A stretch of 541 nt of DNA, taken from a phage. The first letter of the stretch is position 1. Each line of letters starts with the position of its first letter. Under the pieces are notes generated by a model. That model saw nothing but the letters and a program-made list of their open reading frames with translations, did no database searches and was not told the DNA's origin. Of this stretch, positions 1-541 are shown one piece after another. The stretch is from the sequence record EF517040.1. One strand, given 5' to 3'. Position numbers and translations under genes: made by a program.

Positions 1-1
1 T

Positions 2-292
2 ACTGTGGAGGCAGGACGAGATGAGATGGCTGTAGGCTCTCACGCTAAGGGTTACAACCACAACTCTATCGGCGTCTGCCTTGTTGGTGGTATCGACGAT
101 AAAGGTAAGTTCGACGCTAACTTTACGCCAGCCCAAATGCAATCCCTTCGCTCACTGCTTGTCACACTGCTGGCTAAGTACGAAGGCGCTGTGCTTCGCG
201 CCCATCATGAGGTAGCGCCGAAGGCTTGCCCTTCGTTCGACCTTAAGCGTTGGTGGGAGAAGAACGAACTGGTCACTTCTGACCGTGGATAA
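2..292 (+). CDS. 3.5: T7 lysozyme (gp3.5), N-acetylmuramoyl-L-alanine amidase and T7 RNA polymerase inhibitor; 5'-partial, C-terminal ~96 residues, stop codon included
   Basis: Frame-2 ORF open from the window start to TAA 290-292. The translation TVEAGRDEMAVGSHAKGYNHNSIGVCLVGGIDDKGKFDANFTPAQMQSLRSLLVTLLAKYEGAVLRAHHEVAPKACPSFDLKRWWEKNELVTSDRG matches the C-terminal part of T7 lysozyme as I recall it, including the AHHEVAPKACPSF segment that carries zinc-ligand and catalytic residues of the amidase_2/PGRP fold. The M at position 5 in the ORF track is an internal GTG (Val) of the full protein, not a real start. Confidence 0.95.
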   Translation, partial: TVEAGRDEMAVGSHAKGYNHNSIGVCLVGGIDDKGKFDANFTPAQMQSLRSLLVTLLAKYEGAVLRAHHEVAPKACPSFDLKRWWEKNELVTSDRG

Positions 293-293
293 T

Positions 294-316
294 TAATTGA
301 ACTCACTAAAGGGAGA
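294..316 (+). promoter_or_regulatory. T7 RNA polymerase class II promoter (phi3.8), -17 to +6, predicted transcription start at G311
   Basis: TAATTGAACTCACTAAAGGGAGA aligns without gaps to the T7 consensus TAATACGACTCACTATAGGGAGA, differing at -13, -12, -11 and -2; the CTCACTA core and GGGAGA initiating sequence are conserved. Position immediately after gene 3.5 matches the known phi3.8 location in T7. Confidence 0.9.
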
Positions 317-350
317 CCACAACGGTTTCCCTTTGTTCGCATTGGAGGTC
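311..350 (+). promoter_or_regulatory. Structured 5' leader of the phi3.8 transcript; candidate hairpin, possibly corresponding to the T7 R3.8 RNase III processing site
   Basis: GGGAGA (311-316) can pair with UUUCCC (326-331) as a 6-bp stem with one G:U pair and a 9-nt loop; GACC (315-318) is alternatively complementary to GGUC (347-350). From memory, T7 has an RNase III site (R3.8) about 20-25 nt downstream of the phi3.8 start; exact structure not verified. Confidence 0.35.
344..348 (+). promoter_or_regulatory. Shine-Dalgarno sequence (GGAGG) for gene 3.8
   Basis: GGAGG at 344-348, 7 nt upstream of codon 356-358, which begins the in-frame HNH ORF at the position expected for the gene 3.8 start. 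Confidence 0.7.
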
Positions 351-355
351 AAATA

Positions 356-541
356 ATACGCAAGTCTTATAAACAATTCTATAAGGCTCCGAGGAGGCAT
401 ATCCAAGTGTGGGAGGCAGTCAATGGGCCTATACCAAAAAGTTATTATATAGACCACATTGACGGCAATTCACTCAACGACGCCTTAGACAATCTCCGTC
501 TGGTTCTCCCAAAAGAAAACTCATGGAACATGAAGACTCCA
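356..541 (+). CDS. 3.8: Gene 3.8 protein, HNH-family endonuclease-like (homing endonuclease-like); 3'-partial, and the codon at the expected start is ATA rather than ATG
   Basis: Frame-2 reading from 356 gives (I)RKSYKQFYKAPRRHIQVWEAVNGPIPKSYYIDHIDGNSLNDALDNLRLVLPKENSWNMKTP, open to the window end. It contains a classic HNH signature, DHIDGN-x2-N-x7-N-x3-LPKEN, at 449-520. Offsets from the lysozyme stop and the phi3.8 start agree with T7 gene order (3.5, phi3.8, 3.8). Absent from the ORF track, presumably because it has no stop within the window. Confidence 0.8.
   Translation, partial: MRKSYKQFYKAPRRHIQVWEAVNGPIPKSYYIDHIDGNSLNDALDNLRLVLPKENSWNMKTP

Follow-up and report, generated by a model that had tools for sequence, protein, structure and literature searches.

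The stretch of phage DNA analysed here (sequence record EF517040.1, 541 nucleotides, hereafter the window) ends within an open reading frame that follows a phage promoter, carries an HNH-like DH...N...N pattern, and lacks a canonical start codon. The locus therefore raises the question of what protein this frame encodes, whether the pattern is the catalytic core of a nuclease, and what has become of a gene that begins with ATA. An earlier note, prepared from the letters of the sequence alone, had assigned the frame to gene 3.8 of the T7 group and had read positions 449-520 as an HNH nuclease motif in a small endonuclease of undefined function. The HNH identity of gene 3.8 was already known; what is specific to the window is an allele of a mutagenised lineage, with a lost ATG and four residue changes. 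Here, we describe a computational analysis of the gene, its domain structure, its distribution among T7 relatives, and the state of this particular copy. We present evidence that the motif belongs to a two-domain protein of the homing type and that the window copy is at an early stage of decay.

Results

Identity and layout of the window

In the phage collection, no record matches the window more closely over its whole length than T7, whose positions 10870-11410 are 98.7% identical to it; together with the T7 annotation, this match upholds the assignment to gene 3.8. By comparison with NC_001604, the window consists of the end of gene 3.5, the promoter phi3.8, and codons 1-62 of gene 3.8 (Table 1), which this RefSeq entry labels 'HNH endonuclease' (11225-11590). 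The T7 protein gp3.8 (NP_041974.1, UniProt Y38_BPT7) is the product of the same gene at the same genomic position, flanked in T7 by gene 3.5 and promoter phi3.8 as in the window, and 57 of the 62 residues encoded in the window are identical to it. Translation of positions 311-541 in the frame of position 356 gives ...IRKSYKQFYKAPRRHIQVWEAVNGPIPKSYYIDHIDGNSLNDALDNLRLVLPKENSWNMKTP, without a stop codon; codons 63-121 lie past the window and could hold further lesions. The promoter stretch is identical in the window, T7 and relatives, and the hairpin at the beginning of the leader has a predicted stability of -13.4 kcal/mol, the same with G322A.

Table 1. Features of the window and its substitutions relative to T7 (window coordinates; residue numbers are those of gp3.8)
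Feature	Position	Strand	Remarks
T7 gene 3.5 (lysozyme/amidase), 3' part	1..292	+	TAA stop at 290-292; NC_001604 annotation and ORF list
T7 RNA polymerase promoter phi3.8, TAATTGAACTCACTAAAGGGAGA	294..316	+	Start of transcription at 311, the T7 11180 regulatory feature
5' leader hairpin of the phi3.8 transcript	311..331	+	RNA folds of T7 and window; G322A in loop
Native Shine-Dalgarno sequence of gene 3.8, GGAGGT	344..349	+	Intact; anti-SD duplex -10.0 kcal/mol
Start codon position of gene 3.8	356..358	+	ATG in T7 (11225-11227), ATA in window (G358A, M1I)
Gene 3.8, codons 1-62	356..541	+	Open to window end; full gene of 121 codons continues past window
Internal in-frame GTG, Val18 (407-409), after GAGGAGG (391-397)	391..409	+	Candidate secondary initiation site
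HNH_3 nuclease domain, residues 14-56	395..523	+	
Beta-beta-alpha-metal core	446..532	+	Strand 31-34 (D33, H34), strand 47-50, helix 52-59 (N55, N58)
G>A	214		Synonymous, gene 3.5
G>A	322		5' leader hairpin loop
G>A	358		ATG to ATA, gene 3.8 start
C>T	420		A22V
C>T	440		G29S
C>T	470		P39S (T7 C11339T)
C>T	504		A50V

The HNH motif is the catalytic core of gp3.8

In the frame of gene 3.8, positions 449-520 read IDHIDGNSLNDALDNLRLVLPKEN, residues 32-55. The peptide on which the HNH call had been based is thus present exactly; it lies inside both the HNH_3 match and the beta-beta-alpha-metal core, and contains D33 (452-454), H34 (455-457), N46 (491-493) and N55 (518-520). The codon of a further invariant asparagine, N58 (527-529), lies just beyond it. 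Against the window's peptide, the Pfam profile HNH_3 (PF13392) scores 53.3 bits (E 2.1e-14, residues 14-56), compared with a curated gathering cut-off of 24.8 bits and a score of 56.0 bits for wild-type gp3.8. The earlier note had named the lack of a significant family match as grounds for abandoning the HNH call, and the profile search gave the opposite result. PHROG 4578, 'HNH endonuclease', is matched at E 2.1e-29.

A loss of the conserved His/Asn positions on alignment was the other ground that the note had named. We aligned 28 database homologues with identities down to about 30%, among which D33, H34, N46, L49 and N58 are invariant and N55 is present in 27; H15, W19, G24, P27, G37, L47, R48, A50 and N55 are near-invariant. 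The His, Asn and Asp positions hold across this set and extend to the homing endonuclease I-HmuI (PDB 1U3E). Because a PDB search with the single sequence of T7 gp3.8 gave only spurious matches (a designed repeat protein and antibody Fab chains), detection of I-HmuI required a profile built from the homologue alignment, which matched it at E 8.5e-9. In this alignment, 'iDHidgn...NLRLAtpkensaN' of gp3.8 stands opposite 'VDHKDGN...NLRWVTQKINVEN' of I-HmuI, with the DH, NLR and N-x-x-N motifs in register, N46 corresponding to N(LRW) and N55 to (QKI)N. In I-HmuI, the aligned residues are D74, a metal ligand, and H75, the general base, followed by N87 with a structural role and N96, also a metal ligand. 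By homology, H34 of gp3.8 would be the general base, D33 and N55 would hold one divalent metal ion, and N46 would brace the hairpin.

Window positions 449-520 encode the beta-beta-alpha-metal catalytic core of T7 gp3.8, a known gene, and the profile and alignment results confirm that the HNH motif is no chance pattern. I-HmuI of the Bacillus phage SPO1 is an intron-encoded HNH homing endonuclease of 174 residues with an N-terminal beta-sheet domain and a C-terminal helix-turn-helix module, and it is a nicking enzyme with a defined site. In contrast, gp3.8 is free-standing, has 121 residues with almost nothing before the nuclease domain, and carries an AP2-type domain. We found no cleavage or homing studies of gp3.8, including reports of a cleavage target, in the searchable literature, and the terms 'nuclease' and 'homing' are applied to gp3.8 here on homology and distribution only.

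Predicted fold and a second, AP2-type domain

The beta-beta-alpha fold that had been proposed for the motif appears in AlphaFold models of both the full-length protein and the window fragment. The full-length model was made for a protein 99% identical to T7 gp3.8 (P0001) with an alignment of 25 homologues as input, and has a mean pLDDT of 88.4. Its N-terminal half is predicted to consist of a helix (14-23), two strands (31-34 and 47-50) and a second helix (52-57), a beta-beta-alpha unit that carries D33/H34 and N55, with N46 directly before the second strand. The model of the window's own peptide (pLDDT 77.8) likewise shows a beta-beta-alpha unit; the first helix and both strands have the same boundaries as in the full-length model, and the C-terminal helix spans 52-59.

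In the C-terminal half of the full-length model, a three-stranded sheet (72-75, 80-87 and 90-96) packs against a helix (99-117), and this half superposes on the AP2 domains of TEM1 and AtERF1 at 2.0 A. The homologue profile weakly picks up AP2/ERF chains, and several database homologues carry both PF13392 and PF00847; the AP2 part of gp3.8 itself is too diverged and falls below the Pfam AP2 threshold on its own. A Foldseek search with the full-length model returned nothing significant. The models thus suggest that gp3.8 is a two-domain protein of 121 residues, with an HNH_3 domain at residues 14-58 and a predicted AP2-type DNA-binding domain at about 66-118, past the window. This two-domain plan is shared with the HNH-AP2 endonucleases of phages and cyanobacteria, to which Magnani et al. 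in 2004 reportedly proposed that the AP2/ERF DNA-binding domain of plants is related. In such an arrangement the AP2 domain would position the nuclease on a specific DNA site.

Gene 3.8 is sporadically present at a fixed locus

The genomes of T7 relatives differ at this locus. In T7 and phiA1122, gene 3.8 is present and gene 4A starts with MDNSHDSDS. In UFV01, LNA7, Bas103 and WW2, the phi3.8 promoter and leader run straight into gene 4A (MELEQDS...), without gene 3.8. Phages 13a and HZP2 have at the same locus a different gene of about 160 codons, with an HNH_3 match in both and an AP2 match, below the Pfam cut-off, in HZP2 only. The product of this gene is about 40 residues longer at the N-terminus than T7 gp3.8 and is accompanied by a different N-terminal variant of gene 4A; that of 13a is 32% identical to the T7 protein in an alignment that runs through the AP2-like C-terminal part. 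In both types of gene, the C-terminus is ELHGQ(F/Y)ARF, and the 3' end overlaps gene 4A and supplies its start.

Free-standing homing endonuclease genes typically show such sporadic presence at one fixed locus between diverged flanks, and in this respect gene 3.8 behaves as a gene of the homing type. The resemblance to free-standing homing endonucleases suggested by the earlier note is thereby substantiated: the protein combines nuclease and DNA-binding modules in the model, and among collinear relatives the gene is present, absent or replaced at one locus. We envisage gene 3.8 as a homing endonuclease gene of the free-standing kind that sits between genes 3.5 and 4; its 3' end supplies the ribosome-binding site, start and first residues of the primase/helicase gene 4A. 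Since the start of gene 4A is supplied by the 3' end of gene 3.8, gp3.8 would most likely target relatives without the endonuclease gene, either at their 3.5-4A junction or at the beginning of their gene 4A. Indirectly in keeping with cleavage of the endonuclease-lacking allele and immunity of the phage's own genome, gene 4A has a different 5' end in genomes with gene 3.8 (MDNSHDSDS) and in those without it (MELEQDS).

The window copy and the mutagenised T7 lineages

The window differs from T7 at seven positions (Table 1), and all seven changes are G:C-to-A:T. The relatives checked keep the T7 base at six of these sites, the sole exception being A at 214 in the distant Klebsiella phage SH-Kp 152234; the window states at these six sites are therefore derived. 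At the seventh, 322, every natural relative checked has A, as does the window. Viral and metagenome contig collections were scanned for exact copies of the window's variant sequences and yielded none. We considered an origin as a natural variant and rejected it, since 7/7 changes run in one direction and the five gene 3.8 changes occur in no natural relative checked.

In the protein collection, T7 gp3.8 clusters with the gene 3.8 proteins of the T7 isolates K, K115, P and P82 (AY264775-AY264778), which we take to be nitrosoguanidine-mutagenised lineages of the Hillis/Bull experimental phylogeny; these lineages are reportedly the subject of 'Experimental evolution yields hundreds of mutations in a functional viral genome'. 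In K, P and P82 (AY264775/7/8), the changes are exclusively G:C-to-A:T, as in the window, with 9-10 in the 885-bp gene 3.5-3.8 stretch; roughly 1-1.3% of bases are changed across the region. Each lineage carries 3-4 gene 3.8 missense changes. Those of K are A11V, P25S, A43T and G89D; P has G37D and D45N besides a change shared with the window, and P82 adds S96N to these. The gene 3.8 protein of K115 is identical to that of K, and none of these isolates is the source of the window. Unlike the window, K, P and P82 keep the ATG start. The change C11339T (P39S) is common to the window, P and P82, one shared site being expected by chance about 17% of the time; the other changes of the window are not found in P or P82.

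The mutational spectrum and the one shared site link the window copy to a T7 lineage that appears to have undergone G:C-to-A:T mutagenesis, and a sister-lineage origin with isolates K, P and P82 is plausible. A mutagenised origin, which the earlier note had not recognised, would account for both the loss of the start codon and the four missense changes. Heat also raises G:C-to-A:T changes (PMC8923235), and heat-induced deamination was considered as the mutagenic agent; on seven sites it is indistinguishable from alkylation.

Start codon, expression and predicted activity of the window copy

The start-codon anomaly remarked upon in the earlier note is real: the ATG of T7 is ATA in the window, leaving no canonical start (ATG, GTG or TTG) at the conserved position, while all natural homologues that have gene 3.8 keep an ATG/Met start. 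In E. coli, initiation at AUA amounts to 0.02-3% of that at AUG (bioRxiv 10.1101/063800). Full-length gp3.8 is thus probably made from the window copy in amounts of no more than a few percent of normal, and we estimate that any activity would be residual.

Expression need not be zero, since an intact Shine-Dalgarno sequence precedes the ATA and a strong one precedes the internal GTG407. The sequence GAGGAGG lies 9 nt before this GTG, and its anti-SD duplex (-11.8 kcal/mol) is stronger than that of the native site. GTG407 was chosen as the start by gene callers in two database proteins (P0013 and P0017, 'MWEA...'), and a peptide started there still matches HNH_3 (E 4.2e-13). Such a product would lose residues 1-17, including H15, which is found in 26/26 homologues reaching this position, and part of helix 14-23. 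GAGGAGG corresponds to the codons of Arg13-Arg14, and homologues differ at residue 14, where N, G, H, Q or V is found; the family thus does not conserve the internal site, and from this comparison we regard it as incidental.

Residues D33, H34, N46, N55 and N58 are unchanged in the window copy, and none of the four missense changes touches a catalytic residue. Four homologues have Val at position 22, two have Ser at 29, and various residues occupy position 39. The gp3.8 family shows no variation at A50, although the aligned residue of I-HmuI is Val, and A50V is the largest single contributor to a drop in the family HMM score from 94.3 bits in T7 to 87.4 bits in the window. The four changes look mild by these comparisons, and whatever protein is produced may well be active. 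The catalytic motif is thus intact on paper, and the most that the internal GTG might add is a product without residues 1-17.

Probable near-neutral accumulation of mutations in gene 3.8

Gene 3.8 has 85 G/C sites in the window, of which 5 are changed, whereas a single one of the 157 such sites in gene 3.5 is changed (Fisher p 0.02). When mutations are pooled across K, P/P82 and the window, each distinct one being counted once, the ratio of non-synonymous to synonymous changes is 12:2 in gene 3.8 and 3:5 in gene 3.5 (p 0.05), an excess in gene 3.8 that, like the preceding one, rests on small counts (p 0.02-0.05). The non-synonymous share of 12/14 is no different from the neutral expectation of 0.67 (p 0.11). 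None of the six sites in the window stretch at which a G:C-to-A:T change would create a nonsense codon is changed. In P and P82, G>A changes are found at +1 and +5 of promoter phi3.8.

Gene 3.8 is dispensable in the laboratory; viable T7 clones without it exist (MZ375241 and others). Relaxed purifying selection is the simplest reading of these patterns, although the counts are too small to separate it from selection for knock-down. A dispensable gene 3.8 would have taken changes at about the neutral rate, losing its ATG and acquiring four missense changes, and the window copy would then represent an early stage in the decay of a non-essential selfish gene rather than a new kind of enzyme.

Discussion

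Taken together, the results are best explained by a gene 3.8 that encodes an HNH-AP2 protein of the homing type and that, in a mutagenised T7 lineage, survives as a decaying copy with an ATA in place of its start; we put the probability of this joint reading at roughly 0.85.

The description of gp3.8 as a protein of undefined function holds in part. No report of a cleavage target was found, but the description is partly out of date, as a role against the defence system GAPS4 has been put forward in a preprint (10.1101/2025.09.07.674715). Plasmid-expressed T7_3.8 H34A, a catalytically inactive form, strongly reduced GAPS4 protection against lambda-vir (10.1101/2025.09.07.674715). T7 lacking genes 2.8, 7.7 and 3.8 formed smaller plaques on GAPS4 hosts, and the same triple-deletion phage was outcompeted by wild type only on GAPS4 hosts (10.1101/2025.09.07.674715). 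The authors propose that DNA binding masks breaks from the break-sensing GAPS4 (10.1101/2025.09.07.674715). This evidence is early: the phage-level effect is mild and was seen in the triple deletion only, the source is a preprint, and the protein expressed was H34A in the wild-type sequence, not the window allele.

The role of gp3.8 that matters biologically might be DNA binding and not DNA cleavage. A nuclease-independent masking of breaks, with the HNH motif as a relic whose integrity would not affect what the gene is worth to the phage, would agree with the H34A and triple-deletion results (10.1101/2025.09.07.674715) and with the confidently predicted AP2-type domain. We consider it possible but doubtful, as homologues with as little as about 30% identity retain the D-H, N and N residues with almost no exception, which argues for selection on catalysis in nature, and as the sporadic distribution at a fixed locus is a homing signature that needs cleavage; the phage-level effect, moreover, is slight, and nuclease and DNA-binding roles can coexist. 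That the DH...N...N pattern is a chance resemblance in a protein that is not an HNH nuclease is scarcely credible. The spurious single-sequence PDB matches and the empty Foldseek search are what such a coincidence would give, but an HNH_3 match at more than twice the gathering score and the I-HmuI profile match with D-H, N and N in register are not.

A different set of alternatives concerns the window copy. It is unlikely, in our judgement, that the copy still works, with a protein made from ATA or GTG407 retaining nuclease or DNA-binding function. The unchanged catalytic residues, the slight fall in profile scores (56.0 to 53.3 and 94.3 to 87.4 bits), the unchanged predicted fold of the mutant peptide, the strong anti-SD pairing before GTG407, the HNH_3 match of the shortened peptide, the choice of this start by gene callers in two entries, and the 0/6 nonsense sites changed are all compatible with a working gene; they are outweighed by the inefficiency of AUA initiation, by the loss of the invariant H15 and part of the helix before the D33/H34 strand from the GTG407 product, by the poor conservation of the internal site, and by a non-synonymous/synonymous pattern that fits absent selection. 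Still more speculative, and quite improbable, is that the ATA allele is alive in a narrower sense, its product without residues 1-17, which would retain the D-H/N/N core and the AP2 domain downstream of it, or residual full-length protein, keeping the nuclease-independent masking of breaks from GAPS4. If this were true, gene 3.8 would have two protein isoforms, and genetics could separate its 'selfish' nuclease from its 'useful' DNA-binding protein. Selection for the loss of the start codon, because a nicking enzyme or a useless gene is costly under alkylation damage or passage, is a similarly remote prospect. It would fit the observation that gene 3.8 or its expression signals are changed in every mutagenised lineage examined, with 3-5 missense changes in each and the phi3.8 promoter changes in P and P82, as well as the higher mutation density in gene 3.8 than in gene 3.5. 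An inactive H34A protein was used for plasmid expression, for which toxicity of the active enzyme is one possible reason, although the preprint is silent on it. Against such selection, the non-synonymous fraction is not above neutral, no lineage has a nonsense change or an altered catalytic residue, and K, P and P82 keep the ATG; in addition, replacement of most of gene 3.8 by a small insert had no measurable influence on UV survival relative to T7+, the only assay reported. Relaxed purifying selection accounts for the data.

Beyond correct annotation, the finding has little significance, and the window adds no leverage on the cleavage target of gp3.8. The comparison of relatives does narrow the putative target to one of two places, the 3.5-4A junction and the initial codons of the primase/helicase gene. 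The window copy itself, with only a synonymous change in the neighbouring lysozyme gene, would serve as an example of relaxed selection on a dispensable gene of the homing type.

Mutational changes in the expression signals of gene 3.8

All seven differences between the window and reference T7 are G:C-to-A:T transitions; they account for approximately 2.6% of the window's G/C positions. The same spectrum is found in the mutated T7 isolates K, P, and P82 (AY264775, AY264777, and AY264778), and the C-to-T change at window position 470 (T7 11339) is common to the window, P, and P82. The features discussed here are collected in the following table.

Coordinates of sequence differences and predicted expression signals around gene 3.8
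Feature	Window	T7	Remarks
Differences from T7	214, 322, 358, 420, 440, 470, 504		Sequence comparison
5' leader hairpin of the phi3.8 transcript	311-331		Contains G322A (T7 11191)
Promoter phi3.8 substitutions (+1 and +5, both G>A)	311, 315	11180, 11184	P and P82 (AY264777, AY264778)
Predicted small hairpin, reference T7 start region	338-361		GCAUU paired with AAUGC
In-frame GTG (Val18) preceded by GAGGAGG	391-409		9-nt spacing

In reference T7, the Shine-Dalgarno sequence of gene 3.8 lies in the loop of the predicted start-region hairpin. G358A, the change that turns the ATG start codon into ATA, removes one pair from this hairpin. For the leader stretch 311-375, the folding energy predicted shifts from -20.0 to -14.5 kcal/mol. 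At the internal GTG codon, the predicted anti-Shine-Dalgarno duplex is stronger than that at the native gene 3.8 site, and gene callers have placed the start of two database proteins (P0013 and P0017) at this codon. The promoter changes carried by P and P82 are a second, independent way in which mutation struck the expression signals of gene 3.8 in these lineages.

The G322A change falls in the loop of the leader hairpin and leaves its predicted stability unaltered. Since nearly all natural relatives checked have an A at this position, the one departure being a distant Klebsiella phage, it is the G of reference T7 that is the exception. The leader with A at 322, GGGAGACCACAACGGTTTCCC, is presumably identical to the phi10 leader of pET vectors.

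Other gp3.8 variants in sequence databases

In one protein (the P0043, P0013, P0044, and P0045 cluster), residues 1-86 of gp3.8 are joined to DCCNSLSILPTWKPSQTA; contigs encoding this fusion number 89 and come from JGI, Logan, and ENA. The fusion appears to derive from a cloning vector or an engineered strain carrying a T7 restriction fragment, and not from natural variation. Further variants of T7 gp3.8 occur in sequencing-run assemblies (P0039, on four Logan contigs, and P0001, also from Logan); among these, one bears D33G, at the metal-binding aspartate, and another G37A.

The junction of gene 3.8 with gene 4A

We compared the junction regions of several nucleotide records (L001, 2143-2260; L003, 1124-1240; L002, L005, L007, and L008, around 727). 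In T7-type phages and in 13a-type phages, which carry a different HNH gene at this locus, the 3' end of gene 3.8 overlaps gene 4A, which takes from it the ribosome-binding site, the ATG, and the initial residues (MDN...). In close T7 relatives without gene 3.8, gene 4A begins MELEQDS. The N-terminus of the primase/helicase has, in effect, been exchanged for one supplied by the inserted gene.
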